In this document: piece after piece, positions 9,907-32,681 of the stretch
Numbering within the stretch: the stretch's first letter is position 1
Layout of the letters: every line of letters begins with the position of its first letter
DNA from: Mesorhizobium argentiipisi
Lineage (GTDB): Bacteria > Pseudomonadota > Alphaproteobacteria > Rhizobiales > Rhizobiaceae
Assembly: GCF_037179585.1 (NCBI RefSeq)
Contig: NZ_JAPYKO010000004.1
Span: 213,758 to 253,757, forward strand
DNA length: 40,000 bases
Direction of reading: 5' to 3'
Notes under the pieces: model-generated
Told to the model about the DNA's origin: nothing
Seen by the model: the letters and a program-made list of their open reading frames with translations, nothing else
Database searches by the model: none
Position numbers and translations under genes: made by a program

Positions 9907-9945
9907 AAATCACCTCGCGGTTCACAACAACGGAAGCAACAACGA

Positions 9946-10488
9946 ATGGATGCAACCCTCACTCACTGGATCAACGCGGCGGCCGGGCTTCACCCGGTGC
10001 TCGACAAGGCAATGATCGGTATCTCGCAAATCGGTGTTCCCTTGATGGTGCTGGCGGTGGTCCTGCAATGGTGGGTGAAGGTCGACCGCCACCACGTTAG
10101 ACACGCGGCGCTGTCTTCGGGACTGGCGTTCCTGCTCGGGCTTGCGATCAACCAGTTCATCCTTTTGTTCGTTCATCGGATGAGGCCCTATGATGCCGGC
10201 GTGACGCATTTGCTGATCGCCCCCAGCGCCGACTGGTCGTTCCCGTCGGATCACGCGACCGCGACTGTAGCGATTGTCGCTGCGTTTGCGATGCAAGGTC
10301 TGCCGCGCCGGACGCTTGGCTTCGCTGTTCTGGCATTTCTGGTCTGCTGGTCGAGAGTCTACATCGGCACCCACTACCTCACTGACGTGATTGGTGGTGC
10401 TGCAACGGGCATCGCAGCTGCCAGTGTGGTCCGTTTGGCCTATCGCGAGAACTCCCGTTTGGACAGGCTGGTAACCAACATTCTTTAG
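9946..10488 (+). CDS. PAP2 family phosphatase (undecaprenyl-diphosphatase-like)
   Basis: ATG 9946 follows GGAAG. The three PAP2 motifs are present: HRMRPY, SFPSDHA and SRVYIGTHYLTDV. Multiple TM helices. Confidence 0.8.
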   Translation: MDATLTHWINAAAGLHPVLDKAMIGISQIGVPLMVLAVVLQWWVKVDRHHVRHAALSSGLAFLLGLAINQFILLFVHRMRPYDAGVTHLLIAPSADWSFPSDHATATVAIVAAFAMQGLPRRTLGFAVLAFLVCWSRVYIGTHYLTDVIGGAATGIAAASVVRLAYRENSRLDRLVTNIL

Positions 10489-10794: not shown

Positions 10795-10980
10795 CCGTTG
10801 CGCTTTCGTCACCAATCCCGTCTTGCCGCGCTATTTCGTCTCGCAAGGCTCTGGGGGAAGCGGAGGAACGGGAAGGGGACGGGAACCAGACCCGTGGCGG
10901 CCCTACCCACCGCTGACGACGGAAGGAATTCGGAACTATTTTAGTAAATGCTGATTGAATCGCGTTCTTGCGAGTCAGTC

Positions 10981-11864
10981 ATGCGTCTTGTGTTCATTCC
11001 GCCAATGAAGCCCAAGCTCGTGAAGAGCCCACCCCTCGGCGACGACTGGATTCATGAGATCAAGCTGGACGGCTATCGAACGCAAGTCGTCATCAACAGC
11101 CCCGATGATATCCGCGCCTATTCGAGTTCCGGTGCGGACTGGACGAAACGTTACCTCGGCATCGTTGAGGCCGCCCGCGAGCTAGGCGTTGAGTCCGCCA
11201 TCATTGACGGCGAAGCCGTGGTGCCTGGCGACGATGGCCGGCCCGACTTCCACAAGATGCAACGGGTTATCCAGAAAGACCCGTACGCCGCCATCCTTGG
11301 CGCCTTCGATATCCTGCACCTCAATGGCCACGATTTGCGAGACATCGGCTGTAAGGCGAGGCGGGAAATGCTCTACAGCATCGTGAAGCCCGGCACCCGG
11401 ATTCAATTCAGCGAGGCGTTGCCAGGCGACGCCGCCTCGATCTTCTATCTGGTCGATCAAGCCGGGATTGAGGGCGTGGTGTCTAAGCGCGCTCATAGCA
11501 TCTATCGCAGCGGCCCGACTGCGAACTGGGTGAAGACGAAAAGTTACAAGCACACTGATCTTGATCTTGTCGGGGTCGAGCGCGAGGCCGGGAAGCCAAC
11601 CATTGCCAGGTTCGTGGAACCGGGCACCCACCATTATGCGGGGCCGCCGTCATCACCCTCGGCCGTGAAGCTCGCGAACGGCTATGGGCGAAGGTCAAGG
11701 CGAAGGCCGGCGGCGCCCCGCCAAGCGAGGCGATGCGAAAAAAATACCCGGCGACGCAATGGGTGAAACCTGGCTTGCGGGCCACAGTGAAACACTTGCG
11801 AGGCGAAGAGTTCTTGCGGCACGGGTCGGTTATAGGGTGGTCAAACGAAGCTACGAGCGGTTGA
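10981..11864 (+). pseudogene. ATP-dependent DNA ligase (LigD ligase-domain type) interrupted by a frameshift near 11640
   Basis: Frame 1 carries motif I EIKLDGYR, motif III IIDGEAVV, motif IV EGVVSKR and motif V WVKTK. After YAG at about 11640 the homology continues in another frame. My translation there is AAVITLGREARERLWAKVK...TQWVKPGLRATVKHLRGEEFLRHGSVIGW, with a stop at 11862..11864. Confidence 0.7.
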
Positions 11865-13473: not shown

Positions 13474-13503
13474 ATAAAGCCGGATTCGTTTGCGGTTCGT
13501 CAA
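13474..13503 (-). promoter_or_regulatory. candidate promoter TTGACG-N18-CTTTAT with GANTC in the spacer
   Basis: The minus strand reads GTTGACGAACCGCAAACGAATCCGGCTTTAT. It lies about 35 nt upstream of ATG 13437. It contains a motif-family copy at 13488..13504. Confidence 0.45.
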
Positions 13504-13582
13504 CATCCACGCTTCGCGGTTCGGCATGTATTTTTCCTGAAATCGTCCATACGCCCGAAAAATACAGCTAACCCGTTGTTTC

Positions 13583-14910: not shown

Positions 14911-15420
14911 ATGTCGATGCCTGATTGGCTTAGCAGTCTGTTCTCGCTTACCAAGGAGATAAGTTCCAAAGCCGCCCTGCCGATCTTCATCGCGACGTTT
15001 GTATTGCTGTTTTTGCCTGATCCCTACAGCCAAAAAATAGGACTCGATCAGTTTCGCGACACGTATCGAATTTGGGTGGGTGTTCTGTTGCTCCTATCGG
15101 GCGCCGCATTAATCACAAATGCGATATGGGCTATCGCTGGCTTTCTGAGGCCCAAAATAAACACATGGCTTTTCGTTCGCGAAAAAAGGAAAACGTTGCG
15201 CAGTCTGACCGCCGATGAAAAGGCGATACTTCGGCGGTTTATTATAGATGGCGAAGCATCCGTGCACGCCAATTTGAACAGCGGGCCGATCAACCTCCTG
15301 GAGCATAAGGAGATTGTAACCAGGGCCGCTAACGTATCCGTGAGGTTGACGATATTCTCTTACATCATGCAGCCGTGGGCTCGCGAATATCTTGAGCGGA
15401 ACAGAGACCTTCTGAATTGA
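14911..15420 (+). CDS. SieB-like superinfection exclusion membrane protein (candidate)
   Basis: RBS GAGGGGG in a low-GC segment. Two N-terminal TM helices are followed by LTADEKAILRRFIIDGEASVHANLNSGPINLLEHKEIVTRA and IMQPWAREYL. This resembles the architecture of superinfection exclusion protein B family members. Confidence 0.45.
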   Translation: MSMPDWLSSLFSLTKEISSKAALPIFIATFVLLFLPDPYSQKIGLDQFRDTYRIWVGVLLLLSGAALITNAIWAIAGFLRPKINTWLFVREKRKTLRSLTADEKAILRRFIIDGEASVHANLNSGPINLLEHKEIVTRAANVSVRLTIFSYIMQPWAREYLERNRDLLN

Positions 15421-15776: not shown

Positions 15777-16643
15777 ATGGTGAACTTTGACGACCTCGAT
15801 ACGGACCCGATGACCTCGATCCCGGTGGCGCCTGTTGCCACCCCGGAAGAGATCCGCGCCGCCGCTCACATAGCCAACGGTGGCGACGCCTCATTCCCGT
15901 GCCCGAAGTGCAACGGAACTGGCCGGTGGGGTGCCGCCCGCTCTTACGATTGGAAGCCTTGTTTCAAGTGCCAGGGCAAAGGCAGGGTGTCCAAGGGTGT
16001 CGCCGCCGCCGCCAAGGGCAAGGTGACGCGGGCCGCGAACCTCGCGGCCGCTAAGGGCGAGTTTGAGGCAGCGAACCCGGACCTGATGAAAGGCCTTCGC
16101 GAAATCGCGGGCTGGCATTGTTTCGCCGGTGAACTGCTTTCGAAGTTCGAACAGTACGGCGAGCTAACCGCCGGCCAGGTCGGCGCCGCGTTGAACAGCC
16201 TCGCCGAGGTGAAGCGGAAGCGCGAGGAAAAGGCGGCGGCTCGAGCCTCGGAAACCGCCGATAGGTCCGGCGAGGTCGGCGTCGACCGGATTAACGCGCT
16301 GTTCGCCACCGCCATGGAATCCGGTTTGAAAAAGCCGCTGTTCCGCACCGAACGCCTCACGATCAAGCCGGCAAAGCTTCACCCCGGCACCCTCTACGTG
16401 ACCGACAAGACGGCCGGCGGTGAGTACGTGGGCAAGATCGTCAACGGCCAGTTCACGGCCCGGCGTGAGGCCGCCCCGGACACCCTGGCGCTGCTTTGCG
16501 CCATCGCAGCGGACCCGCTGAAAGCCGCCATCGACTACGGCCGGTCCACCGGGGTTTGCGGCTGCTGTGGCCGCGAGCTTACCGACACCAAATCCGTCAA
16601 GGCCGGCATCGGCCCGATTTGCGCAACCAAATGGGGCCTTTGA
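15777..16643 (+). CDS. zinc-finger protein with a C-terminal DUF6011-like motif
   Basis: RBS AAGGGGG. A DnaJ-type CxxCxGxG pair is present (CPKCNGTGR, CFKCQGKGR). The C-terminal CGCCGRELTDTKSVKAGIGPICATKWG matches the DUF6011 pattern. Confidence 0.6.
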   Translation: MVNFDDLDTDPMTSIPVAPVATPEEIRAAAHIANGGDASFPCPKCNGTGRWGAARSYDWKPCFKCQGKGRVSKGVAAAAKGKVTRAANLAAAKGEFEAANPDLMKGLREIAGWHCFAGELLSKFEQYGELTAGQVGAALNSLAEVKRKREEKAAARASETADRSGEVGVDRINALFATAMESGLKKPLFRTERLTIKPAKLHPGTLYVTDKTAGGEYVGKIVNGQFTARREAAPDTLALLCAIAADPLKAAIDYGRSTGVCGCCGRELTDTKSVKAGIGPICATKWGL

Positions 16644-16677
16644 GCCCACGCCTTCCCCTTGAAAAGGATCAACTGCA

Positions 16678-16899
16678 ATGGGCAAGACTACCCCGAAAGA
16701 AATGAACGACTCCGACGTCGTCGCCGCCGAGCAAGCATTGCTCGCCGCAAAGGTCCGCAACATCCTGATACGGGAATGCATGCGGATCGGCGACGATGGC
16801 AACCTAGAAACCGCCGGCCTTCTCGCGAAGGCTGTCCGCGCCCTTACCTCTGATCAGATTTTGCGGATGCGCCGCGCCATCCTGGGGGCGGGTCAATGA
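16678..16899 (+). CDS. hypothetical protein (73 aa)
   Basis: RBS AAAGGA. Last gene of the plus-strand operon. Confidence 0.45.
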   Translation: MGKTTPKEMNDSDVVAAEQALLAAKVRNILIRECMRIGDDGNLETAGLLAKAVRALTSDQILRMRRAILGAGQ

Positions 16900-16961
16900 A
16901 GCCGTACATTGGCGTCGTCTGGAAAACTGCCGGCCAAGGCCAAGACATCTCGGTCAAGCAA

Positions 16962-17477
16962 CTATTGGGCATGCGAAATAAGGTATTTGAGAGCATCCAC
17001 GGCATCACTGGCAGCTTGTTCGCTACAAAGTGAAAAGTCTTTCTCAATAACCACGTCCTTGTGCTTTACGTCCTTGTCGCAATTACCGTGCGGCCAGCAA
17101 TTGTGGCCAATAAATACGTTCCGCAAGCAAAGCCGGTCCTTCGTACAAAACACGGTTATATCAGTTCTGAGCGCTTCTTGTCGAACATCAATTTCATCCA
17201 AGTTACCCCATGTGGATTCAGAAATAATATTCTTCATGGCGCCCATCTCCGATTGGTCGAATGAAATCGATTTACGTACTACGCTGAATTTGGAGCGGTC
17301 GCCGCCATATTTATAAGCGGTCGACATGCCTGCCACTACACTTACCGGGCACCTGAATGATTGCGCCAGCAGTTGCAGGGCGTCGCCCGCCTCATCGCCA
17401 AAAGCGTTCGAGGACGGAGACACAGTCGTAAACACCGTGGTACAGACTATGGCGAAAATCGTGCCAATCGTGCGCAT
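16962..17477 (-). CDS. secreted hypothetical protein (low-GC island)
   Basis: 171 aa with an N-terminal signal-like segment MRTIGTIFAIVCTTVFTTVSPSSNAFG. Lies 17 nt downstream of the preceding gene. Confidence 0.5.
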   Translation of the reverse strand: MRTIGTIFAIVCTTVFTTVSPSSNAFGDEAGDALQLLAQSFRCPVSVVAGMSTAYKYGGDRSKFSVVRKSISFDQSEMGAMKNIISESTWGNLDEIDVRQEALRTDITVFCTKDRLCLRNVFIGHNCWPHGNCDKDVKHKDVVIEKDFSLCSEQAASDAVDALKYLISHAQ

Positions 17478-17494
17478 TCGGTCCGTCTCTGTTG

Positions 17495-18202
17495 TTATTC
17501 ATCATCCCGACAGTAAGTATACCTTATGCCGTTAATAACTCTCTGAGGCTCGCATTGAGAAGCTTGGCCGTCCCACCCATGAGTAAGCCAACACGTCACA
17601 TAGCCCTCACCATGGACAATGTGTGTACATCGCGTTAGGTCGAACTGCACCTCGGCGTTTCCATTTTTAAGCTGCTTACGCACCTCCGCAGTATGCCTCC
17701 GAACACTCTCTTCCAGACGCCTTCTAGCTTCCTCTGCTGTCGCTTCCTGCGCTTCGTCGGCTTGTAATTTTTCCTGCACCGCTGCTTCATAGCCTGAGCT
17801 GAGTGCATCACCGTTCCGTTTGTTGGTTTCTTCCGCGCCTTCAGCTCTCTTGGTTGCGTCCTTCAGCCGGTCCGAGAATTTGCTCTTCGTCGTCGTCTCC
17901 GGTCCGGAAGCTTTACTGCACTCATCCATGCGGTGGTTGTAGGCTCGAATCAGATCATTGCGGCGCCCAAATTCCTTGATGCAGTTGTCATGGTACGGCA
18001 TATCGCCCATACGCGTATGGTAATCCGGGCAAATCTCTATGACCTTTTTATAAACCGGAAGGTGGCCTGTGTTGCTGGGACAGGTTTTGCCGCGAACCGT
18101 TGCCTCGACCTGAGACATGCTGATGTCTTGCGACCGGGCAGGAATTTCCATCAGCGCGAGAAGAGCCAATACTGCGATCAATCGATCACATAGGAGGAAC
18201 AT
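17495..18202 (-). CDS. secreted Cys-rich protein with a central charged coiled coil (low-GC island)
   Basis: 235 aa with RBS GAGGATGGG and a signal-like N-terminus. Cys-containing N- and C-terminal domains flank an E/A/K/R-rich helix. Confidence 0.5.
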   Translation of the reverse strand: MFLLCDRLIAVLALLALMEIPARSQDISMSQVEATVRGKTCPSNTGHLPVYKKVIEICPDYHTRMGDMPYHDNCIKEFGRRNDLIRAYNHRMDECSKASGPETTTKSKFSDRLKDATKRAEGAEETNKRNGDALSSGYEAAVQEKLQADEAQEATAEEARRRLEESVRRHTAEVRKQLKNGNAEVQFDLTRCTHIVHGEGYVTCWLTHGWDGQASQCEPQRVINGIRYTYCRDDE

Positions 18203-18891
18203 TGCCCATCCTCTGGACGCGGCGCCCCTAGCGGCCCACAGTTCCGCGCGTTTGGTTCGTTGGGTTGAACCGCCGTAAATAACCGGCAGCTAAATTAGCG
18301 TCGTACATTAATATAGATTTCTATGCCTTTCCAGCGCTTTCGCTGAACTCGCCGCTGTGGCCCGCAAGCCTCGATGCATTACGAGGACATATAGGCCCCG
18401 AGTTCCACCCTACACCGGGGCATATTGAAGCGCTGCAAAGGGTCGCAGCTAGCAGATAGTACAACGCGGCCTATCGGCGGTTTCTTTTCTCTACTTCGGT
18501 GTCGTTGACGGAAGAAACGAGGCCGCTCACAAGTTAGTTTGTATTAGCGTGATGTAATAAGCATATTAGTTGCATCACGAATTGTTAAAAACTTTTGCTC
18601 GGCTTGTCATCTTAGTTGCACGGTAAATAATCCGTGATAGAAGCCTGATCGGGCTTAGCAACCCTGACGAGACTGAGGGCGCGACAACGCCCGAGAGTGC
18701 GCACGCTTAGCGGCGCCGCACAACCCTGGCTCTTCGGCCGGGGGCGGCGCGCGTATGTCCAAGCCTCCGGGCTAAAGGCGCGTCGGCTTGTCGTCTCGAT
18801 AAGTTGCTAACCCCCGGCTCGCCGCCCGAAGAACGCGGCCCTGCATGCCAGTGTCGTACAAAATGTACTATTGATTTCGTGCGGATTGTAC

Positions 18892-18906
18892 GTTCTAATT
18901 TCGTTC
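18892..18906 (+). promoter_or_regulatory. alphaproteobacterial LexA (SOS) box candidate GTTC-N7-GTTC
   Basis: GTTCTAATTTCGTTC, located 27 nt upstream of ATG 18933 in an AT-rich intergenic region. About one match per window is expected by chance. Confidence 0.4.
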
Positions 18907-18932
18907 TCACATTTGTTCGGAATCAATTCAGC

Positions 18933-19316
18933 ATGAAACGCCGCCTCAAACTCGCACTATCCGCCTTCACCAAACGGCCGCTCGCCGCGTGCTCGGCGCC
19001 GCATATCGAGGTGAGGCCTCGGGCCTCTACTCCCCGTCCTCTCTACATCGCCACTGGGCGAAGTTATCGCGCCAGGAACGGCGCCAGGATCGGCCCGCTT
19101 CGCCCCTTCCGCGACGAGGAGGACGGCCACCACAAAGATGAGGTCGGTCGGTCCGCATGGTTCTACGCCGATGGTATCGGCGCATATGATCGCTTCGGTC
19201 ACTTCCTATCCGGCCAAGCCGGGGAAAGCCCCCTGGATTGCGTGGCAGAGTGGAAACCAGCCCAAATCATCGGCTTCGATCAATTCTCTATCGTAGCGCC
19301 TTTCCTATCCCACTAA
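18933..19316 (+). CDS. hypothetical protein, paralogue of the 33839..34321 N-terminal domain
   Basis: Shares about 70 aa with the other copy. This copy reads GPLRPFRDEEDG...GRSAWFYADGIGAYDRFGHFLSG...VAEW. The other reads GPLRPYREGEDG...GRLAWFVAEGIGAFDKFGQWLSG...VAEW. Confidence 0.55.
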   Translation: MKRRLKLALSAFTKRPLAACSAPHIEVRPRASTPRPLYIATGRSYRARNGARIGPLRPFRDEEDGHHKDEVGRSAWFYADGIGAYDRFGHFLSGQAGESPLDCVAEWKPAQIIGFDQFSIVAPFLSH

Positions 19317-19334
19317 AGCAGCCGGGGAAAAATC

Positions 19335-19670
19335 ATGATCCAGCTACCGCAATCCGCCCCGTTGCCGTGGGCGATCAAAGAAAGCGCGGGCGTCGCCGAA
19401 TTGGTTGACGCCAACGGCGAACCCGTCATCACTTCGGACGACGAGGGGCTTGTCGCCCCTTCTGAGGTGTGGGCTTTCATTCTGGCCGCCGTCAACGCGT
19501 ACGCCTATGACCGCCGCCGCAACAGCGCCGGTGTGCTGATGCCGAAGCGGCCGGAATTGGCGATGGACACCGCCTTTATCGGCTACCTCAACGAATGCGA
19601 AGAGAAAGACATGATGCCAACAATCGCGGCACTCTGGCCCCGTTTGATCGACGCGGCCTTGAGACGATAG
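19335..19670 (+). CDS. hypothetical protein (111 aa)
   Basis: RBS GGGGAAA, 18 nt after the previous stop. Confidence 0.5.
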   Translation: MIQLPQSAPLPWAIKESAGVAELVDANGEPVITSDDEGLVAPSEVWAFILAAVNAYAYDRRRNSAGVLMPKRPELAMDTAFIGYLNECEEKDMMPTIAALWPRLIDAALRR

Positions 19671-19815
19671 AGCCGCGTCTACCTTTTGTCGTGGTGCCCG
19701 GTAAGAAGACGGCAAGTTGCGGGAAATGAGGCAGATTGAAAGTTACCAATAAAGGGTGTAGATTAGCAGTTGCTCACGATTGAACCGTTGCTACCCATCA
19801 CACCCGGAGGGGATC

Positions 19816-20130
19816 ATGTGGAGAGCAATCTTAGTTTTGTGCCTGATAGTGCCGCTGCCTAGCGGAAAAGCGAATTCAGCCAACTATGTAGTCTGCGTTG
19901 GGCAATACCATGACACGGGTGCGTGCATTTCCGCGAGAGGCAACCTTGCCTGTATAGGTGCAAATACTTGTATCGACTTTCCTTTCGATAAACAGCTAAG
20001 TTGTGGAATTTCATTGACCGATATTTGTAGAACCATGTGCCACGGTAATTCGGTCTGCACAATAAGCCCAGCCCATACCGGTGAGGGCGGCCATCAGTGC
20101 GGCTATGCATGGTTACATGTTCAATGCTGA
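19816..20130 (+). CDS. small secreted Cys-rich protein (104 aa, about 10 Cys in the mature part)
   Basis: ATG 19816 follows GGAGGGG. Signal peptide MWRAILVLCLIVPLPSGKA. Low GC. Confidence 0.5.
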   Translation: MWRAILVLCLIVPLPSGKANSANYVVCVGQYHDTGACISARGNLACIGANTCIDFPFDKQLSCGISLTDICRTMCHGNSVCTISPAHTGEGGHQCGYAWLHVQC

Positions 20131-20145
20131 GACCACAGCGCCCGT

Positions 20146-20397
20146 CTAGCCGGCGCGGTGGCCGTAGGCCCGGACGATGCAATTAGCCTTGCCCTGGCAC
20201 AGATAACAAGGCCGCTCGCATTTGCTATCACAGATCATAAGCGCGACCTCGGCGGCGGTTGGCTTCGCCGAGGCGGTCATTAGCTTGAGCCCCACAAAAT
20301 AGGCGGTGTCCGGTGCCAGCACGACGCGTCGGCACGCGTTTCCCCGAGCGATCAACAGCGCGGCTAAATCAGCCTCATTCGTCCACCGCCGTGACAT
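20146..20397 (-). CDS. hypothetical protein with a C-terminal Cys cluster
   Basis: 83 aa containing CDSKCERPCYLCQGKANC. Convergent with the preceding gene. Confidence 0.4.
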   Translation of the reverse strand: MSRRWTNEADLAALLIARGNACRRVVLAPDTAYFVGLKLMTASAKPTAAEVALMICDSKCERPCYLCQGKANCIVRAYGHRAG

Positions 20398-20481
20398 CGT
20401 TCCCGCCTCTGGAATTTATTCCTATGATGGGAACGCCCCGCAAACGGATCAAGCCCGAGCGATCAAAAAAGTTCGCGCAAC

Positions 20482-20522
20482 TGTAATCTATCAGTTGACA
20501 GTGTAATCAGATTGATTACAGT
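20482..20522 (+). promoter_or_regulatory. higBA promoter/operator candidate: TTGACA-N16-TACAGT with inverted repeat TGTAATC-N5-GATTACA plus a third half-site
   Basis: TTGACA at 20495..20500 and TACAGT at 20517..20522. The inverted repeat is at 20502..20508 and 20514..20520, with an extra TGTAATC at 20482..20488. ATG 20530 follows about 8 nt after the -10 with no RBS. Confidence 0.55.
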
Positions 20523-20529
20523 CAATTTC

Positions 20530-20805
20530 ATGATTATGACATTCAGAAACAAAGCCCTCGCCAACCTCTGGCTGACAAGCCGGTCAACCATTGATGCGCG
20601 GATGCACCGCCGCATTTTGGTCCGGCTAAACGCCATTGATGCAGCGGCTACGGTTGCCGACATCAATCTTCCGGGCTTCGATTTCCACGCGCTGCACGGC
20701 TTCAACCCGACCCGCTACAGCGTCCATGTGAATGGCCCGTGGTGCCTCACATTCGAGTTCGAAGGCGGCAACGCCTACCGCGTTGACTTCGAGCAATACC
20801 ACTAG
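20530..20805 (+). CDS. higB: HigB-like toxin (RelE/ParE superfamily, plasmid maintenance killer type)
   Basis: MIMTFRNKALANLW...INLPGFDFHALHGFNPTRYSVHVNGPWCLTFEFEGGNAYRVDFEQYH matches the HigB pattern ending in ..v.y.DYH. It is followed by a HigA-type antitoxin. Confidence 0.8.
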   Translation: MIMTFRNKALANLWLTSRSTIDARMHRRILVRLNAIDAAATVADINLPGFDFHALHGFNPTRYSVHVNGPWCLTFEFEGGNAYRVDFEQYH

Positions 20806-20817
20806 GAGAATAAGATC

Positions 20818-21153
20818 ATGGCTGATGACAAGACTAGGCGGAACACCGTAGACATCCCGGCTAAGGCGGACCCGAACCGCTGCCCCTCGCACCCCGGCGA
20901 GCTTATCGCGGATCTGTTGGAAGACGCCGGCAAGAGCAAGATGGCGGTGGCCGAAATGCTCGGGATTTCCCGCCAGCAGTTCCATTCGGTACTAGCGGGC
21001 CGGAAGCCCGTAACGCCGGACATGGCGGCGCGCCTCGGGAAGCTCTTCGGGAACGGCCCCGGCCTCTGGCTACGCATGCAGGCGAACTTTGATGCCTGGC
21101 ACGCCGCCCGCGAGGTGGATGTAAGCGCCATCCCTACGATCAAGGCGGCCTAG
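20818..21153 (+). CDS. higA: HigA-type antitoxin (XRE-family HTH)
   Basis: RBS AGGAGA. HPGELIADLLEDAGKSKMAVAEMLGISRQQFHSVLAGRKPVTPDMAARLGKLFGNGPGLWLRMQANFD is the canonical HigA HTH pattern. Confidence 0.85.
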   Translation: MADDKTRRNTVDIPAKADPNRCPSHPGELIADLLEDAGKSKMAVAEMLGISRQQFHSVLAGRKPVTPDMAARLGKLFGNGPGLWLRMQANFDAWHAAREVDVSAIPTIKAA

Positions 21154-21187
21154 CCCTACCGGCCGCCTTCGAGATATAATTGTTTAA

Positions 21188-22399
21188 ATGATTCCATTCG
21201 GCAGACCTACGGGCCTGTTCGCGAGTCCGATGGCTGACTACCCGCAACTAGGGTTTAGTATGAAGGCAGTCCGCAAGGCGGGAGACCGCTTGGCGCAAGA
21301 CATCGTCTTTAATCAAGACATGACCAGCACTGACTTTGCTTCCGTTATAGAAACCTTCGCGGTGGCAAATAGCTTTCGGGATTCGCACGTGATGCCAATG
21401 CGCTCGGTGTTCTACTCCGTGCGCCATAAGCTCCGCCAATACGGTATTCGCGGCGACATGGCCGCAAGGCCGAAAAGGATGCCGTCTATTAGAAGGAAAC
21501 TCAGCAGCAGTACTATCAAGTTCGATCAAATGAATGATCTCGGCGGGTGCCGCGCGATCATGCACGACATTCGTGGGGTTCGCACCTTGATAGCGGCCAT
21601 CGAGGATTCCTTCCCGCATCCAATCAGGCAGCGATACCCATACATTGAGAGGCCGAAGGCGGACGGTTATCGCAGCCATCATATCGTCTTCAATTTCAAC
21701 CCGAGCGGCGCGGAACAGGTTGCGTTTGCAGGCAGACGGATCGAGCTACAAATCCGCACTCGCCTACAGCATTCATGGGCAACCGCTGTCGAGGCCGCCA
21801 GTCTATATCGCGGCGAAGATTACAAGCACGGCCAAGGCGACCAAGATTGGCTGCGCTTGTTTGAATTGGCGGGCGCGGAATTTTCGCATGTCGAGGAATG
21901 CCCAATTGTTGAGGGCATGCCCAACCACGACGAGCGCGTAAAAGAGCTTAAAGACCTAAACCGGAAACTTCGCGCGACTAGCGTTCTTGAGAACATCAAG
22001 AATGCCACCCATTTCGCCGAAACAAATCGGCATGATGCTGGGAAATATTTCCTGATTAGATATCGGAAAGACCACACCGTCGCCGTTGAGGGCTACGATA
22101 GCATTATAGTCGCGACGCAAGAGCTTGGTGACGCCGAATTCAGGATCGCGTCCGGTCAGGACGACGATAGGGTCGTGCTGGTTGAGGTCGGGAAGATCAG
22201 CAAGCTTGTGCAGATGTACCCGAATTACTTTGGCGACGTGTCCCTGTTTGTCAGCAATCTCGGGGAAATTTGCGAAGGCAGAAAGCCGGTAGAGTACAGC
22301 ATGGCGAAGCCACAAGTCGTGGCCTCTAAGCCACGCGAAGTCGGCAGTACCACGGCGCTCTACCGGCGATATACGAAATGGTTCGAGAAGAAGCGCTAA
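21188..22399 (+). CDS. RelA/SpoT-domain protein (toxSAS / CapRel-like) with an unassigned ~190-aa C-terminal half
   Basis: Nucleotidyltransferase signature: DLGGCRAI, GYRSHHIVF, ELQIRTRLQHSWATAVE. A perfect TATAAT (21175..21180) ends 7 nt before ATG 21188. ATG 21230 is an alternative start. Confidence 0.75.
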   Translation: MIPFGRPTGLFASPMADYPQLGFSMKAVRKAGDRLAQDIVFNQDMTSTDFASVIETFAVANSFRDSHVMPMRSVFYSVRHKLRQYGIRGDMAARPKRMPSIRRKLSSSTIKFDQMNDLGGCRAIMHDIRGVRTLIAAIEDSFPHPIRQRYPYIERPKADGYRSHHIVFNFNPSGAEQVAFAGRRIELQIRTRLQHSWATAVEAASLYRGEDYKHGQGDQDWLRLFELAGAEFSHVEECPIVEGMPNHDERVKELKDLNRKLRATSVLENIKNATHFAETNRHDAGKYFLIRYRKDHTVAVEGYDSIIVATQELGDAEFRIASGQDDDRVVLVEVGKISKLVQMYPNYFGDVSLFVSNLGEICEGRKPVEYSMAKPQVVASKPREVGSTTALYRRYTKWFEKKR

Positions 22400-22436
22400 A
22401 ACTGACCCGCTAGGGCAGAAGCGCGATAGCGCCAGA

Positions 22437-22730
22437 TCAGCGCCACTCGGCGACGTCGACGCCGCCATCGGGCCGGAAGGTCAAACGATACTGGAAATCG
22501 CCGAACACGTTGTCGGTGCCGTCATCCGGCCCGCACCAAACCTTGACCACGTTGCCGCGAGCGGTGGCCGGCTTAGCCGAGGCCATCTTGACCAGAGGGC
22601 AATTGAAGCCCTTCCCCTTGATCAAAGCGGTCGTGTCTTTGACCATCACCGGGGTTAGCTCGATTTGAACCGCGAGCGCGGGCGTAGCTATAAACGAGCC
22701 GAGCGCGGCGACAGCGAGGATCTTTTTCAT
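22437..22730 (-). CDS. small secreted/periplasmic protein
   Basis: 97 aa with signal peptide MKKILAVAALGSFIATPALA. The start overlaps the upstream stop (ATGA). Confidence 0.5.
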   Translation of the reverse strand: MKKILAVAALGSFIATPALAVQIELTPVMVKDTTALIKGKGFNCPLVKMASAKPATARGNVVKVWCGPDDGTDNVFGDFQYRLTFRPDGGVDVAEWR

Positions 22731-23638
22731 ACCGCGAGGTCTAGCGTCGTTTCGGCCAGGTCCGCAAGCCCGGCGCGCTCTAGCGCCGGTTCTAGCAGCC
22801 GCAAGACCGCTTCGCGCTTTTTCGCCTTTAAAGACAAGTCTCCGTCCAGGCCGACCTCATGGAGCCAAGTTCCCCGCCATTCGCAATATGCCTGCCTGAG
22901 TTCGGCTCCCGGCAAAGCTGCGAATGAAGTGATCGGCCGTTGCGGCACGGTGTTAGGATCCGTGTGGCGATAGAGCACGTTCCAATTTGCACCGCCGGTA
23001 TCTAGGTGGTTGGCGAACCAGTCCAGTCCGAAATCCAGAGGCTCGCGGCCGACCGCATCAAATCGAAAGAAGCAATAGCCAGCCCAGAGAAACCACCGCG
23101 CGCCTGCCCAACGCAGATCGCCGTGAAAGGCCGCGTCTTTAAGGGGTTCGAAGGGGTCGCATGGCTGTGTCGGGAAAAGATCCTGGTCAAGGAATCCGAA
23201 TGCGGCCGGCGCGGCCGGCTTCAGAATGTTATGCCACATCCAATTCATTGCAGCGCCATGGGAGCGGCTGGCATTTCTTGCTGTCCATGGATTGACAGGC
23301 AGCCTGACATAGACGGCGCCATGTCTCGCGCACACTTGCTCGTTCTCATTGGCGGCCGCTTCGCCGACGCTGTTGTCCGCAATGATGTGCAGATCGTGGC
23401 GAACCAATCCCCGCGTCAATCGCAACTGCAAATCTAGGCATTGAGCATCGCTGAATGCTATGGTCAGCAATACACGGCGGTCCCGAGCGGCGGCGCGGAT
23501 AGCCTGGATGTCGCCTTTCCTTGCTCGTTGCCACAGAAATCGCGCGTCAGTAGCTCTATAGCGAATAGATTTATATGCATGGGTGATGGGCCGAAGGCGG
23601 CTCCAATCCTGCAATTTGTACTCTCGTAATCTGATCAT
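22727..23638 (-). CDS. GT-A fold (family 2-like) glycosyltransferase candidate
   Basis: ATG 23638 follows AAGGG. Motifs: IIADNS, SRSHGAAMNW, FGFLDQDLFP (DxD). No TM segments. Confidence 0.45.
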   Translation of the reverse strand: MIRLREYKLQDWSRLRPITHAYKSIRYRATDARFLWQRARKGDIQAIRAAARDRRVLLTIAFSDAQCLDLQLRLTRGLVRHDLHIIADNSVGEAAANENEQVCARHGAVYVRLPVNPWTARNASRSHGAAMNWMWHNILKPAAPAAFGFLDQDLFPTQPCDPFEPLKDAAFHGDLRWAGARWFLWAGYCFFRFDAVGREPLDFGLDWFANHLDTGGANWNVLYRHTDPNTVPQRPITSFAALPGAELRQAYCEWRGTWLHEVGLDGDLSLKAKKREAVLRLLEPALERAGLADLAETTLDLAV

Positions 23639-23813
23639 GGCGGCAGCCCTTACCCTCCAATGGCAGCGCCCGCAACAATTCCGTAGGGCGGCACGTCCAT
23701 TGTGACAACCGAGCCCGCCCAACATGCACGGGTGAGCCTGGCGCGGTCCACCGCGCCGCTATCCTGAATAGCCAGGTAGGCGAACGGCGTGCCTTCGGCC
23801 CATTCGGGCGAAT

Positions 23814-23890
23814 TGGTTGCGGGGGGCGGATTTGAACCGCCGGCCTGTCGGGCATGAACCGACCGCGCTACCGGGCTGCGCTACCCCGCG
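23814..23890 (-). tRNA. tRNA-Met (anticodon CAT), initiator-like, with an atypical anticodon loop
   Basis: Hand-folded 77-nt cloverleaf CGCGGGGTAGCGCAGCCCGGTAGCGCGGTCGGTTCATGCCCGACAGGCCGGCGGTTCAAATCCGCCCCCCGCAACCA. It has a C1xA72 mismatch, a GGTTCAAATCC T-arm and an encoded CCA. The loop is UUCAUGC (G37). Confidence 0.8.
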
Positions 23891-23898
23891 AGAAGGGC

Positions 23899-23928
23899 AC
23901 TAAGCCCGAGTCGTTTGCGTTTCTTCAA
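23899..23928 (-). promoter_or_regulatory. candidate tRNA-Met promoter TTGAAG-N18-CTTAGT with GANTC in the spacer
   Basis: The minus strand reads GTTGAAGAAACGCAAACGACTCGGGCTTAGT and ends 8 nt before the tRNA 5-prime end. It is homologous to the 24372..24401 element. Confidence 0.45.
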
Positions 23929-23939
23929 CGGCCGCAACG

Positions 23940-23966
23940 AAAAAACCCGGGATCGCTGCCGGGTTT
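23940..23966 (-). terminator. Rho-independent terminator after the 101-aa secreted-protein gene
   Basis: The minus strand reads AACCCGG-CAGCGATC-CCGGGTT followed by T6. Confidence 0.65.
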
Positions 23967-23990
23967 CGAGACATAGTGTAATCGGCGCGA

Positions 23991-24296
23991 TCAGGTCGCC
24001 CACGGAACCGCGAAAGTTCGATGCCAGTCGGCAGCGCGGGGTTTGAAGCGGTAGTCGGCAAAGGTAGCGGCGACGGTACGCTTGGCGCCGAGCGTCGCGG
24101 GTTTTCGCACCATGTCTTCCGAAGCCCGCATGATCGCGAAGCCGCCGGGAACCGCGAGAATGGGCGGGGCCGGTAGTTCATGCTTCATGCTGGCGACCGA
24201 GACGGTGGCGAACTCGGCGGCCGGTGCAGCACAAGCCGGGAAGGCGAGGCAGCAAACCGCGAAGATAGCAGACACGAGAAAGCTTCTCTTGAGCAT
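23991..24296 (-). CDS. small secreted hypothetical protein
   Basis: 101 aa with RBS AGGGAA and signal peptide MLKRSFLVSAIFAVCCLAFPACA. Confidence 0.5.
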   Translation of the reverse strand: MLKRSFLVSAIFAVCCLAFPACAAPAAEFATVSVASMKHELPAPPILAVPGGFAIMRASEDMVRKPATLGAKRTVAATFADYRFKPRAADWHRTFAVPWAT

Positions 24297-24320
24297 CTTG
24301 GTTCCCTGGTTTCATCAGTC

Positions 24321-24362
24321 AAAAAAAGCGGCCCGCCCTGGGAGGTCTATAGAGCGGGCCGC
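24321..24362 (-). terminator. strong Rho-independent terminator downstream of the primase gene
   Basis: Perfect 9-bp GC stem GCGGCCCGC / GCGGGCCGC (24354..24362 and 24328..24336) with a 17-nt loop. T7 follows on the minus strand (24321..24327). Confidence 0.75.
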
Positions 24363-24371
24363 AACATCACG

Positions 24372-24401
24372 ATAATCAACGAGTCGTTTGCAATTTGTCA
24401 A
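24372..24401 (-). promoter_or_regulatory. promoter-like element TTGACA-N18-GATTAT between the primase stop and the terminator
   Basis: The minus strand reads GTTGACAAATTGCAAACGACTCGTTGATTAT. It contains motif copy 24386..24402 and GAGTC at 24381..24385. Confidence 0.45.
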
Positions 24402-24404
24402 CGA

Positions 24405-27272
24405 TCAATCCGCGTCTTCACCGGGCTCGCGCTCGCCGAGCAAGGCGTTAAGCGGGACCGTTACAAACGGCGTATTGATCCCGCTGGAAAAGTAGCGGTT
24501 CCCCTTGCCTGGGATCGCGCCAGGTATCGCCTTCAAGATGTCTCGATACTTGGTTGCCCCCCATTCCGTGTTTTTTAGGATCAACCGTTTGAAGCTTTCG
24601 TGCGACGTTGTGATGTCCGCGACCATGCCGTCCGGCCCACGCCATACGCGAATGCCGAGGCGGGCCAGGGCGGACACCGCAGACGCTTTTTTCTTGTTCG
24701 GTTCCTGGGTGCCGTAGCCGTCATTAGGCGGCATCATATCGGCGGCGAAAGCGGCCAGTTCCAAAAGCTCGCCAATGGTGCGTTCCCATTGTCCGCCCTC
24801 GGGCGTGTTGTGCCGGACAAGGTAGCCGGTGACATGCTGCAAAAACCGTTCGGAATCCTTTGTCGCGCCCTTCGCGGTGTGATCCGTCCAGTCGTTGGCA
24901 CGAAGCCACTTCAAGGCCTCTTCCACCGTTACCGGCTTGGTCGTGTTGAGAAGGTAGGCGCCGGCCAGCATCGGCCCGAGCTGGTCGCCGAGGCGTTGTG
25001 TCCCGAGGTGCTGAGTAGCCGCCACGGTGAACACGTCCACGTAAGCGCGTAGCGTCGGCAGATGGGCGATGGTGCGGGCTAGAAGGCGCTTCGAAAAGCT
25101 CGGCGAGAGCAGGCCCACGATATCGGACAGAAGCTTTTCATAGTGCTTTTTATTCATCGCCTTTTCTTCGTCCGTATCCCGTGACGGGTCCGCGAGCGAC
25201 AATTGCGTGATGCGGGTTTCGTCCGCGTACCCTTCAATCTGAGTGAAGATGGAGGCAAACACGAACATTGATCGCGCTCGGAAGCCCTTCGTTTTCTGGC
25301 CGGCGGTGCCCTTCAAAATCATGCCGTCACTTTCCGAGGCGGCGACGCGCGCCAGGTCCATAATCGCCCTGATGCGGTTTTGATTGTTTTGATCCTTCGG
25401 CTCGACTTCGTCAAAGATGATGGGCAAGGCATCCATGCCGAGGGCGCCGCGCACGCCGGCCTCGGTCGTATTGCCCACAACGCTTAAGCCGGTGACGCCG
25501 AGGCAGCGCTTGATTATTTGATCCATCACAGTCGACTTGCCCGAGCCCGCCGGGCCGTTCACCCAGATATGCGGGCGCCATTTCAGGAAGCCGCACACCG
25601 GGGCCACAACGCACCATCCCGCTAACAAGTAGCCGGACAGCGGGGAAACCCACCGAAGGCTTTTGCAAAGCTCTAGCAGGCGCCGGGCTTCGTTCGTTGA
25701 AACAGGCTCGTCAACCTCAACGGCTAGGGCCTCGCCTTCGTCATAGACGTACCGGCCCCGGTGGTCGTGGAATGATGTCTCTTGACCGTCCACGATTAGC
25801 CGGTCGCCGGCATGGTAGACGGCGGTTTCGCCTTCGAACCATGCGCCCCGGCCGCGCACCGAATTGTGCGGCACGAACTTGCGGCGGGCCATGCAAGCTT
25901 GCATGCAAGCGTTGATCGCCGCGTGCCAGTCGACGCCGCTCTTCGAACCGGGGAATTCCGATTCCCACCATTGGAGCTTGGCGAGTCGCATCATGTTGTT
26001 TGATGACATTTGCGAGGCGTTGAGGGCGATGACTTGCGCCACGTTGGAGGGCTGAAAGAACAGCGTCGTTTCATCCACGCCAAGGCACCGGAAATGAGGG
26101 GCGCCGAAGTCAGCTAGTGGGTGCTCGGCCTTCGCCACGCGCTCGCGCGGCGCCGGCTCGCCGAAGTCTTCGCTTGGTCCTTCACCGCCCCGGTAATAAT
26201 CGTCGGGGTCCGTGGGCAGCGGCGGGTTTTCGTCCGCCGCCGGTTTCGGGTTGAGCGCGGCGTCGATGACTTCGCGGACCGCGTCGAGGCCGCTTTTGCG
26301 GGCGAGGTCATCGAAGTCGGTAAGCTCGATTTCGGCGTCGTCAAACACGGGGAAGGCGACGACGCCGCCCACGGCTTCCGCCGCGTCCTTCGCTTTCGTG
26401 ACGCCTGGGTTGAACCGCCCGTCTGGCATCTTCACAAGCCGGTCGTTATCCGCCGCGAACAGAATGCGGGCCTTCGGATACTTCGCCCTTATCGCCTTTG
26501 AAGCCGGGCCGAGGTTGCCGGCGTCGAACGCCGTAATAGTGAGGTAGCCGGTAGCCTGATGAACGCGGGCGGCGGTGCTGTAGCCTTCGGCGATGGTGAT
26601 AACGAAGTCGGCGCCAGGATCTTCGGGCCGCTTGCCGATCGGATGATAATTCCCCTCTTTCGCAGTGCCCTTGAGAAACCGTTTCGTGCCGTCATCGCCG
26701 ATAAGCTGGACGCTCGCCAGTTCGGCGCCAGGCGTGTACAGCGGCACGACAAGGGAACCGGCGCGGGCGGTGCGCGGGTCTTCCTCGGGGTCTACCACGT
26801 ATTTGACGTTTTGCTTCAGGCGCCGAAGGCCAGGGAAGGGCGGCAGACCCTTTTTCGCGAGGTAGGGGTGTGAAGCCGGCGCCTTCTCTGTAGCGGCCAT
26901 GATGAGGCCGGCAGCGGCGGCAGCGGCGGCATTGAGCGCGGCCCGCTCTTCCTCGCGTTGCTTTTGCGTTTCCGCCATGCGCTTTTTCAGTTCGGCGCGT
27001 TCCGCCGCCGTCATGCTGGACGGGCGCTTTTCCGTCCATGTATCCTGAATTCCAGTTTGCAGGTCGCCGAAGGCGCCCGAGGCCGGGGTGTCGAGGTGCA
27101 GCACATACCAAACGTGTTGGTTCTTCGCCTTTTTCTTGCCCTGGGCGTTGGCGCGGTGCACCTTTCCATCGGCTATCGGGTGCGATGCCCCGCGCGAGTT
27201 GGCGGTGTCCATATGGACGCCCGCCGAGCGCATTGCGTCGAGGAATTCGAGGATTTTCTTTTCACTGTCCAC
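24405..27272 (-). CDS. bifunctional DNA primase/helicase (Toprim + P-loop; P4 alpha / DUF927-like)
   Basis: 955 aa with a GTG start overlapping the VRR-NUC stop. Toprim-like region ITIAEGYSTA...LFAADNDR. Walker A is VNGPAGSGKST and Walker B-like is PIIFDEVEP. Confidence 0.85.
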   Translation of the reverse strand: MDSEKKILEFLDAMRSAGVHMDTANSRGASHPIADGKVHRANAQGKKKAKNQHVWYVLHLDTPASGAFGDLQTGIQDTWTEKRPSSMTAAERAELKKRMAETQKQREEERAALNAAAAAAAGLIMAATEKAPASHPYLAKKGLPPFPGLRRLKQNVKYVVDPEEDPRTARAGSLVVPLYTPGAELASVQLIGDDGTKRFLKGTAKEGNYHPIGKRPEDPGADFVITIAEGYSTAARVHQATGYLTITAFDAGNLGPASKAIRAKYPKARILFAADNDRLVKMPDGRFNPGVTKAKDAAEAVGGVVAFPVFDDAEIELTDFDDLARKSGLDAVREVIDAALNPKPAADENPPLPTDPDDYYRGGEGPSEDFGEPAPRERVAKAEHPLADFGAPHFRCLGVDETTLFFQPSNVAQVIALNASQMSSNNMMRLAKLQWWESEFPGSKSGVDWHAAINACMQACMARRKFVPHNSVRGRGAWFEGETAVYHAGDRLIVDGQETSFHDHRGRYVYDEGEALAVEVDEPVSTNEARRLLELCKSLRWVSPLSGYLLAGWCVVAPVCGFLKWRPHIWVNGPAGSGKSTVMDQIIKRCLGVTGLSVVGNTTEAGVRGALGMDALPIIFDEVEPKDQNNQNRIRAIMDLARVAASESDGMILKGTAGQKTKGFRARSMFVFASIFTQIEGYADETRITQLSLADPSRDTDEEKAMNKKHYEKLLSDIVGLLSPSFSKRLLARTIAHLPTLRAYVDVFTVAATQHLGTQRLGDQLGPMLAGAYLLNTTKPVTVEEALKWLRANDWTDHTAKGATKDSERFLQHVTGYLVRHNTPEGGQWERTIGELLELAAFAADMMPPNDGYGTQEPNKKKASAVSALARLGIRVWRGPDGMVADITTSHESFKRLILKNTEWGATKYRDILKAIPGAIPGKGNRYFSSGINTPFVTVPLNALLGEREPGEDAD

Positions 27273-30279: not shown

Positions 30280-30771
30280 TTACGCCGCCACCGCCTCGCG
30301 CTCGTCGGTAGCGATAGCGTCGCGGACCGCGCGGCGCTCGGAAGGGGTGCCCCGGCCAGTCGTCAAAGCGTCATTGAAACGGCAGTACGGCGCCCGGCTG
30401 TCGAGATTCCGCGGTGCCCCGCAAAACAGCGAAGTTTCGCGGTCGTAGTGTTCATGATGGCCCCAAAGCGGGAACTCGCACCCGCATGAGGTCAGGCGGC
30501 CACGGGGCACGCCGTCAAAGCCTGGCGCCTTCTCGGGGAATCTTGCTTTGAAAGCCTTCGGCGCCGGCCCCTCGACATGAGTCTTCGGCGCCATCGTCTT
30601 GTGAAAGCGGTTCGAACCGTGTCCACGCGGCCGGAACTTCTCGGGGTTGCGGCGAGCCAGGCCGTAAAGCTCTTCCGGGCTTGACCCGCAAAGCTCGGCG
30701 ATCTCGGCGCCGTTCATTCCTGTGGCCCAAAGGCGCGCGGCCTCGGCCTTGTTTTCGGCTGTCCATTTCAT
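30280..30771 (-). CDS. GcrA-like cell-cycle regulator homologue
   Basis: RBS GGAGAA. The N-terminus MKWTAENKAEAARLWATGMNGAEIAELCG and the C-terminus CGCEFPLWGH...SLFCGAPRNLDSRAPYC parallel the two conserved GcrA regions. Confidence 0.65.
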   Translation of the reverse strand: MKWTAENKAEAARLWATGMNGAEIAELCGSSPEELYGLARRNPEKFRPRGHGSNRFHKTMAPKTHVEGPAPKAFKARFPEKAPGFDGVPRGRLTSCGCEFPLWGHHEHYDRETSLFCGAPRNLDSRAPYCRFNDALTTGRGTPSERRAVRDAIATDEREAVAA

Positions 30772-30788
30772 GCGTCAATTCTCCGAAT

Positions 30789-30807
30789 CGTTTGCATTTT
30801 GCAAACG
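30789..30807. promoter_or_regulatory. perfect 19-bp palindrome CGTTTGCA-TTT-TGCAAACG between the methylase and the gcrA-like gene
   Basis: Read directly. GAATC (30785..30789) abuts it. It lies 18-36 nt upstream of ATG 30771. Confidence 0.55.
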
Positions 30808-32462: not shown

Positions 32463-32681
32463 CTAAAACAAGTCCCCTTGTTGCGGTTCGGGTGCCGGGG
32501 GCTTCGGCGCCGGGGGGTCCACCGGCTCGGCCTTGCGCACCGTTTGCATTTCGTCAACGCGATGCGCGTAGCATCGCCAATTCCCGAGGCGGCCAGCCAA
32601 AAGTTTGACGTTGTAACCGAAGCTCGCGGCGCCGCCGCACACTTCACAAACAAAATCCCCAGGGCCGGCGACTCGTGTCAC
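32463..32681 (-). CDS. small hypothetical protein (possible zinc ribbon), start uncertain
   Basis: GTG 32681 gives VTRVAGPGDFVCEVCGG...WRCYAHRVDEMQTV. There is no RBS. The upstream 60 nt of the track ORF contains a promoter-like motif. Confidence 0.35.
   Translation of the reverse strand: MTRVAGPGDFVCEVCGGAASFGYNVKLLAGRLGNWRCYAHRVDEMQTVRKAEPVDPPAPKPPAPEPQQGDLF

Follow-up and report, generated by a model that had tools for sequence, protein, structure and literature searches.

Does a HigB-HigA toxin-antitoxin operon carried by a Mesorhizobium prophage form one system with the RelA/SpoT-domain gene directly downstream of it, or are these two separate modules that have come to lie next to each other? 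The question arises in a stretch of 40,000 nucleotides (nt) of Mesorhizobium argentiipisi (GCF_037179585.1, contig NZ_JAPYKO010000004.1, positions 213,758 to 253,757), called the window below, in whose coordinates all positions are given unless another locus is named. An earlier note made from the letters alone had described higB, higA and the RelA/SpoT-domain gene as a candidate prophage defence cassette, in which the third protein would be either self-inhibited in the manner of the fused toxin-antitoxin CapRel or served by HigA. Since capsid, portal, terminase and primase genes are encoded there, the window is a lambda-like prophage, which supports the idea of a prophage defence cassette. 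The three co-directional genes are also real, with profile matches to HigB, HigA and RelA/SpoT.

Here we conclude, with a probability of about 0.8, that the RelA/SpoT-domain gene encodes a distant (25% identity) new member of the known fused CapRel family of RelA/SpoT-domain toxins (toxSAS), and that it lies next to an autonomous HigBA. The domain architecture, the homology over both halves of the protein, the conserved catalytic and neutralisation residues, the prophage location, the lack of a conserved partner gene and the independent insertion of the cassette support this directly. HigB-HigA and capRel are neighbouring modules of known kinds and do not make up a new three-part system.

Gene extent and family identity

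The RelA/SpoT-domain gene, here called capRel (Table 1), had been read as an open reading frame (ORF) of 403 amino acids (aa) starting at ATG 21188, 34 nt after higA. We rejected this start as probably over-extended. The gene most likely begins at ATG 21230 and encodes 389 aa, because the family N-terminal consensus MxxYPxL fits this position, DNA homology to the closest capRel relatives sets in at 21228-21230, and an independent gene call returned the same 389 aa. The gap to higA is therefore 76 nt. Residue numbers below are those of the 389-aa protein, with 14 to be added for the 403-aa ORF. The stop codon ends at 22399 and is followed after 37 nt by a convergent 97-aa gene (22437-22730). 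As the earlier note had observed, nothing downstream fits an antitoxin or hydrolase, and neither the 76-nt nor the 37-nt flank contains an ORF.

The RelA/SpoT signature reported for the N-terminal half was borne out by Pfam RelA_SpoT (5.2e-19 over residues 94-209 of the 403-aa ORF), and the quoted strings DLGGCRAI, GYRSHHIVF and ELQIRTRLQHSWATAVE are present in the translation. The PADLOC model PDC-S33 matches the protein end to end (3.7e-101, 337 bits, profile positions 3-343 of 349). CapRelSJ46 of Salmonella phage SJ46 (KU760857) itself matches PDC-S33 as well (7e-87, 290 bits), which identifies this model as the CapRel family. A further match was obtained to phrog_4773 of PHROG (1.1e-64), and 113 confirmed relatives lie on viral or prophage contigs. 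The best sequence matches in the PDB are 7ZTB and 9ERV, both CapRelSJ46 (1.2e-22), and extend from the toxSYNTH domain through to a shared YPNYFG near the C-terminus. By BLASTP, the protein is 25% identical to CapRelSJ46 (E 2e-27, query 41-340, subject 38-362). Among NCBI entries, one of M. argentiipisi matches it at 100% identity.

The C-terminal half, left unassigned by the earlier note, matches the pseudo-zinc-finger domain (pseudo-ZFD or pZFD) of CapRel, its antitoxin/sensor domain. A profile of residues 216-389 alone, built from 100 homologues, scores the C-terminal region of CapRelSJ46 at 21.6 bits, against 8.0 bits for the best of 2000 composition-matched shuffles, so this half is homologous to CapRelSJ46 in its own right. 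In literature searches we found no paper naming PDC-S33 or pairing CapRel with Mesorhizobium.

Predicted structure and conserved residues

An AlphaFold2 (AF2) model was built from a 100-sequence alignment, with a mean predicted local distance difference test score (pLDDT) of 87.6 and a predicted template modelling score (pTM) of 0.84. Conservation was counted over 100 homologues. The toxSYNTH domain contains the motifs R80-x-K82-xxx-S86-xxx-K90 and D103-xx-G106-x-R108, the G-loop G146-Y147, and E172-x-Q174-x-R176-T177. All of these motif residues are invariant or nearly so, and R80, K82, S86, K90, D103, G106, R108, Q174, R176 and T177 do not vary at all. The following linker, residues ~195-262, aligns with the helices that connect toxSYNTH to pseudo-ZFD in CapRelSJ46. 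Beyond it, the model predicts strands at 273-278, 283-289 and 314-319, with a helix (292-307) between the second and third strands, then the YPNY turn (330-333) and a helix at 338-348. In the CapRel pseudo-ZFD, three strands form an antiparallel sheet, a helix separates the last two of them, and a helical extension follows at the C-terminus (PMC9712102). The predicted beta-beta-alpha-beta topology of the window protein is the same.

A Foldseek search of the PDB with this model ranked 7ZTB and 9ERV first (E 2.1e-19 to 3.8e-17, 359-369 columns, template modelling score 0.58-0.69), the top match being 7ztb_B (2.1e-19, 361 columns). Ordinary small alarmone synthetases came next, at ~1e-7 and over ~190 columns only. 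The root-mean-square deviation to 7ZTB is 10 Å, as would be expected if the model showed the closed and the crystal the open state.

The residues that operate the switch in CapRelSJ46 can be traced in the window protein. The catalytic G-loop tyrosine of CapRelSJ46 is Y155, its ATP-coordinating residues are R79 and R116, and A77 belongs to the interface (PMC9712102). The YXXY motif, made up of Y352 and Y355, auto-inhibits the enzyme by inserting itself between R79 and R116 (PMC9712102, PMC11782079). A77, R79, R116, Y155, Y352 and Y355 correspond to A78, R80, R108, Y147, Y330 and Y333, all invariant among the 100 homologues, as is G335. By column entropy, the block 331-340 (YPNYF) is the most conserved in the protein at 0.28 bits and the catalytic motifs range from 0.3 to 0.6, while residues 291-310 in the pseudo-ZFD helix are the most variable at 2.1-2.4 bits. 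The sensor domain of CapRel is its fastest-evolving part (PMC9712102), and a variable pseudo-ZFD together with a conserved YXXY block thus mirrors the pattern reported for CapRel. YxxY was found in the C-terminal region of 75/80 prophage-borne relatives, and YPNY(F) in nearly all tails inspected.

Taken with its characterised counterpart (PDB 7ZTB, 9ERV; PMC9712102, PMC11578894; homologues CapRelEbc and CapRelKp), the window protein shares the arrangement of an N-terminal toxSYNTH, helical anchors and a C-terminal pseudo-ZFD in one polypeptide. Both have the G-loop Tyr, the donor-site Arg pair, YPNYFG and a variable sensor domain, and both are prophage-borne, stand without a partner gene and match PDC-S33. 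They differ in that the window protein belongs to an alphaproteobacterial (Rhizobiales) clade and lies in a lambda-like rather than a P1-like prophage, and its trigger, substrate and defence phenotype are read across from its homologues. The homology over both halves, the pseudo-ZFD topology and the invariant YPNY strongly support the self-inhibited, CapRel-like alternative of the earlier note.

It is extremely improbable that capRel is decaying, or is an inactive remnant that no longer has a function. Its ribosome-binding site and promoter signals are weak, as a remnant might show, but the ORF is intact and of family-typical length, the catalytic and neutralisation residues are all conserved, and the structure is predicted with confidence.

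Synteny and the sister prophage

Loci with capRel relatives were collected from genomes (80) and viral contigs (80), and a tblastn search with HigB and HigA covered 164 loci, within 5 kb. None of the 164 has higBA upstream of capRel. HigA-like matches were found in two of them, one of which also has HigB, and both are downstream and on the opposite strand. All-against-all clustering of the ORFs around capRel in the 80 genomic loci revealed no conserved partner, the largest cluster being an insertion sequence (IS)-type transposase in 16 loci. The closest CapRel homologues, from M. australicum (86% identity), Mesorhizobium sp. ORM8.1 (80%) and M. loti UFLA 01-765 (79%), all lack higBA and stand alone in unrelated contexts. 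DNA similarity to these closest loci is limited to the coding sequence, as is homology to other capRel loci, and no transposon-like ends could be defined around capRel.

In 12-16 of the 80 genomic loci, among them L007, L008, L011, L013, L039 and L043, two ORFs lie just downstream of capRel, one small (60-73 aa, KPKKAEKLSQKEQSERFKEAARELEADESG...) and in convergent orientation, the other resembling an IS-type transposase. Neither ORF is present in the window. This hints that some CapRel family members travel with an insertion sequence.

Conversely, the closest HigA homologues (82-95% identity) adjoin HigB without a RelA/SpoT gene. The most informative of these loci is a colinear sister prophage in Mesorhizobium sp. 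CA4 (locus L166), which has higBA at the same site and no capRel. It is 83-93% identical to the window across aligned blocks spanning ~15.8-25.3 kb of the window. By blastn, window 20156-21153 corresponds to L166 3337-4339 (86.6%), and this homology ends exactly at the higA stop codon. It resumes at window 22443-23816, corresponding to L166 4580-5945 (93.4%), where the convergent 97-aa gene has its 3' end. In place of the 1289 bp of the window, comprising capRel with its 76-nt and 43-nt flanks, the sister prophage has 240 unrelated bp (L166 4340-4579). A hydrophobic peptide of 25 aa (MNLYLFGFIAVGVAMWWMRENGITR) could be encoded in that segment. A chromosomal higBA locus (L167) is likewise without capRel, and there the higA stop directly abuts a relative of the convergent gene's 3' end. 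The breakpoints in the sister prophage fall at gene borders. The capRel gene is therefore an independent single-gene cassette, inserted where two convergent genes meet, at a site that is variable among related prophages.

Two further blocks are present in the window and absent from the sister prophage. One (16890-18358) contains minus-strand genes at 16962-17477 and 17495-18202, with a guanine-plus-cytosine (GC) fraction of ~0.51 and no family matches. The other (19679-20155) contains a Cys-rich 116-aa ORF (19780-20130). The region around capRel is a hotspot of cargo exchange.

These comparisons bear on the three-part system suggested earlier, in which HigA or the HigBA complex would act as antitoxin or dedicated regulator of the RelA/SpoT toxin. 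A lack of synteny in related genomes is among the findings that the earlier note itself had named as refuting it. In its favour, the genes are adjacent and co-directional across a 76-nt gap with no canonical terminator and no clear promoter for capRel. This gene order, however, recurs in 0/164 related loci, the closest CapRel homologues have no higBA, and the close HigBA homologues (82-95%) have no capRel, the cassette being a clean 1289-bp indel relative to the sister prophage. The window protein moreover has its own antitoxin domain in cis, with an invariant YXXY. The higBA operator palindrome is not repeated upstream of capRel, as its only matches are at the higB promoter and at a 3-mismatch chance match at 23977. 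We have therefore rejected a HigB-HigA-toxSAS system, for which the synteny is absent in the 164 CapRel loci, the three closest CapRel loci and the two close HigBA loci, and hold a role of HigA as partner of the RelA/SpoT protein to be scarcely credible.

The higB-higA operon

The two upstream genes form a canonical, autonomous type II toxin-antitoxin operon, with the toxin gene first and a spacing of 12 nt. HigB has a RelE-type fold and most likely starts at ATG 20530. Its ORF could be extended to TTG 20512, and the 91-aa call is common to three related assemblies (L085, L166 and L167). Position 20482, which the earlier note had taken as the start of its three-gene interval, proved to be at the left edge of the higBA promoter/operator. 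HigA scores 75.3 bits against TIGR02607, for which the cut-off is 47.7, and is preceded at 9 nt by an AGGAG ribosome-binding site. Its homologues at 91-95% identity in other Mesorhizobium carry the HigA annotation. An exact look-up of P0122, the closest HigA homologue, gave no record. In both loci where capRel is absent, the sister prophage (HigA 95% identical) and L167 (82%), HigBA is maintained as an autonomous two-gene unit.

The promoter of the operon matches the scan at 10/12 positions. A perfect 8+8 palindrome, TGTAATCA-gat-TGATTACA, lies at 20502-20520 between the -35 and -10 hexamers, and a second, imperfect copy lies at 20482-20500. The palindrome search would be expected to return 0.51 matches by chance. 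Type II toxin-antitoxin operons are usually autoregulated, and for this reason the palindromes are a putative HigA operator. The higB ATG follows the end of the -10 box at a distance of 7 nt and lacks a Shine-Dalgarno sequence (20517-20532), so the higB mRNA may be leaderless. In its matches to family models, its gene order and its promoter palindromes, the operon resembles other HigBA modules. The sole special feature that sets it apart is the capRel cassette just downstream, which is absent at the close HigBA homologues examined (82-95% identity).

Proposed mechanism and substrate

By homology to CapRelSJ46 (PMC9712102, PMC11782079), the C-terminal pseudo-ZFD would dock onto the N-terminal toxSYNTH in the uninfected cell, with YPNY (Y330/Y333) slotting between R80 and R108 and blocking the site for ATP, the pyrophosphate donor. 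On infection, a phage protein would then bind the variable pseudo-ZFD and keep it off the active site. The opened enzyme would move pyrophosphate from ATP to the 3' CCA end of tRNAs, such that translation halts and the infection aborts. Auto-inhibition, a tRNA substrate, a phage-protein trigger and a defence phenotype are thus all predicted from the same relative. For the phage trigger and abortive infection, the variability of the sensor domain and the prophage location lend indirect support.

The choice of substrate can be narrowed by the mode of neutralisation. Blockade of the donor site by a pZFD with YXXY is the mode of control linked to tRNA-targeting toxSAS (PMC11782079). In toxSAS that make (pp)pApp, neutralisation is by Tis1-type domains and takes place at the acceptor site (PMC11782079). 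The window protein has the pZFD/YXXY arrangement, which favours tRNA over (pp)pApp. Bipartite toxSAS, such as FaRel2/ATfaRel2 and the PhRel/ATphRel pair of mycobacteriophage Phrann, are similar in that a pZFD-type element neutralises the toxSYNTH toxin by placing the YXXY 3-10 helix into the ATP donor site (PMC11782079). Their antitoxin, however, is a separate small protein encoded adjacently, whereas the pZFD of the window protein is fused in cis and no small adjacent ORF accompanies it.

Alternatively, the enzyme might not be a tRNA pyrophosphokinase at all, but a toxSAS that makes (pp)pApp, as FaRel and Tas1 do, or a small alarmone synthetase with a housekeeping role in making (p)ppGpp. The RelA/SpoT nucleotidyltransferase fold is common to all of these, the RelP and RelQ structures are significant fold matches (1e-7), and there are weak NCBIfam RelA/SpoT matches. 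Those NCBIfam scores nevertheless fall far under the equivalog cut-offs (32.9 against 320 for YjbM, NF053588, and 41.5 against 499 for another). The synthetase fold matches cover only the N-terminal ~190 columns, and where RelP, RelQ and YjbM have C-terminal helices for tetramerisation, the window protein has a pseudo-ZFD. Its gene is also on an accessory prophage cassette, and the donor-site block described above is tied to tRNA-targeting enzymes. We consider an alarmone-making enzyme very unlikely, and favor a CapRel-type tRNA pyrophosphokinase.

Points against the CapRel assignment and transcription of capRel

Several observations weigh against a simple transfer of the CapRelSJ46 model. Identity to the sole characterised relatives is low (25%), and the choice between tRNA and (pp)pApp is an extrapolation across that distance. 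The CapRelSJ46 interface residues A341 and A351 are replaced by E319 and M329, a mapping that hinges on where the alignment gap is placed. V338/L339 likewise correspond to V316/L317 in the phmmer alignment, while BLASTP puts the gap elsewhere. The contacts of YPNY with the arginines R80 and R108 are predicted by homology. The protein also ends in a conserved tail of ~40 aa with an RRYxxW motif. CapRelSJ46 lacks this tail, which is a feature of the Rhizobiales clade and for the most part restricted to close relatives. R379, Y381 and W384 are at least 90% conserved among the 100 homologues, and RRYxxW was found in 26/43 close relatives compared with 3/37 more distant ones. Finally, the 76-nt gap after higA holds no convincing promoter for capRel (TATAAT at 21174-21179 has a poor -35), and a terminator scan found no canonical terminator after higA. 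The capRel gene may thus be transcribed from the higBA promoter.

The last point raises the possibility that HigBA and capRel are mechanistically independent yet transcriptionally coupled, with read-through from the HigA-repressed higBA promoter, such that the status of HigBA sets the level of CapRel. Beyond the weak promoter candidate in the gap, the homology shared with other capRel loci does not reach upstream of the start codon, and so no conserved promoter arrived with the gene. The closest relatives instead have a 500-700 nt spacer upstream of capRel. At the junction itself, a GC-rich hairpin straddles the higA stop codon, with a 9-bp stem (AAGGCGGCC/GGCCGCCTT), a 10-nt loop, a minimum free energy of -19.1 kcal/mol (z = -2.8) and its right arm inside the inserted cassette. 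It has no canonical U-tract and was not called by the terminator scan, and its role as a terminator is doubtful. A hairpin this stable (-19 kcal/mol) and placed exactly at the junction may nonetheless terminate or attenuate transcription. The arrangement is also unique to this prophage, so that any coupling would be accidental and not selected, and alphaproteobacterial promoters are poorly captured by a sigma-70 scan. On balance we regard such coupling as possible but rather unlikely.

Quite unlikely, though worth stating, is a stronger version in which the expression of capRel here depends on the HigA-autoregulated higBA promoter and, separately, the Rhizobiales RRYxxW tail is an extra regulatory or sensing element. 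If true, HigB would be released and CapRel levels would rise together whenever stress or infection destabilised HigA, and higBA-capRel would be an accidental two-layer, transcriptionally coupled abortive-infection unit. Our preferred reading is still that of a CapRel-family cassette next to an autonomous HigBA.

Prophage setting and cargo region

The structural genes of the prophage (major capsid E of the Phage_cap_E type at 1109-2191, S49 protease, lambda-type portal and gpA terminase) are on the minus strand at 1.1-8 kb, and its replication and modification genes (primase, helicase, methylase and YqaJ exonuclease) are at 24-36 kb. The cargo region between these modules contains higBA and capRel. 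The earlier note placed the three genes in a lower-GC moron. The GC fraction is indeed 0.55-0.58 over the higB-higA-capRel interval compared with 0.62-0.65 in the structural and replication modules, but the low-GC cargo zone itself is wider than the three genes, at ~9.5-23 kb. A megablast search of window 16000-24500 against a phage collection gave no match.

The cargo region also encodes a SieB superinfection-exclusion protein (Pfam PF14163, 2.4e-28), a PAP2-family phosphatase and a protein with an ATP-dependent DNA ligase domain. SieB is a candidate second anti-phage function of the prophage. A PADLOC scan of ten other cargo ORFs at 10.9-20.4 kb returned no matches. Between the cargo region and the primase gene is a tRNA-Met (CAT) gene. 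At this spot (window 23817-23936), the sister prophage has an outer-membrane beta-barrel gene instead, and a short-read assembly of the same prophage stops just short of the tRNA-Met gene. We also noted six copies of a ~24-nt motif in the window, with a consensus of roughly CGnnTCGTTTGCAnTTCGTCAACG (minus strand CGTTGACGAAATGCAAACG). Several copies directly precede genes on the minus strand, tRNA-Met and the gene at 30280-30771 among them, and the motif may be a phage-specific promoter or operator.

Table 1 Features of the capRel locus and the surrounding prophage, in window coordinates.
Feature	Position	Strand	Description
higBA promoter/operator	20480-20522	+	-35 TTGACA 20495-20500; 16-nt spacer; -10 TACAGT 20517-20522; operator putative
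higB	20530-20805	+	RelE-fold HigB-type toxin, 91 aa; Pfam PF05015 HigB-like_toxin 4.4e-12; phrog_3066 "toxin of TA system" 4.9e-26
higA	20818-21153	+	XRE/helix-turn-helix (HTH) HigA antitoxin, 111 aa; NCBIfam TIGR02607 antidote_HigA 2.5e-21; Pfam HTH_31
GC-rich hairpin	21142-21169	+	9-bp stem, 10-nt loop, straddles higA stop codon
capRel cassette	21154-22442	+	1289 bp, absent from colinear sister prophage of Mesorhizobium sp. CA4; blastn and junction alignments
capRel-like gene	21230-22399	+	Fused toxSAS toxin-antitoxin, 389 aa
toxSYNTH domain	21326-21811	+	RelA/SpoT nucleotidyltransferase, residues ~33-194; Pfam RelA_SpoT
Alpha-helical linker/anchor	21812-22015	+	Residues ~195-262; AF2 helices 205-221, 233-247, 249-259
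Pseudo-ZFD antitoxin/sensor domain	22016-22189	+	Residues ~263-320; AF2 secondary structure, C-terminal profile
YXXY neutralisation motif	22217-22228	+	Y330-P-N-Y333, counterpart of CapRelSJ46 Y352-P-N-Y355
Clade-specific C-terminal tail	22280-22396	+	Residues 351-389; basic, predicted disordered (pLDDT 45-64), conserved RRYxxW
PAP2-family phosphatase	9838-10488	+	Cargo region
ATP-dependent DNA ligase domain protein	10948-11766	+	Cargo region
SieB superinfection exclusion	14911-15420	+	Cargo region; Pfam PF14163
tRNA-Met (CAT)	23814-23890	-	Between cargo region and primase gene
~24-nt motif copies	3348-3371, 13482-13505, 23907-23930, 24380-24403, 30784-30807, 32536-32559		Possible phage-specific promoter or operator

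Significance

The locus reveals no new mechanism and no new toxin-antitoxin architecture. What it adds is a distant CapRel homologue, at 25% identity, located in a prophage of the nitrogen-fixing symbiont Mesorhizobium, and the recognition that PDC-S33, a candidate family in PADLOC, is none other than CapRel. The sister prophages form a natural presence/absence pair with a clean 1.3-kb difference at the site, and this pair could be used to test defence and to find the rhizobiophage triggers of CapRel.

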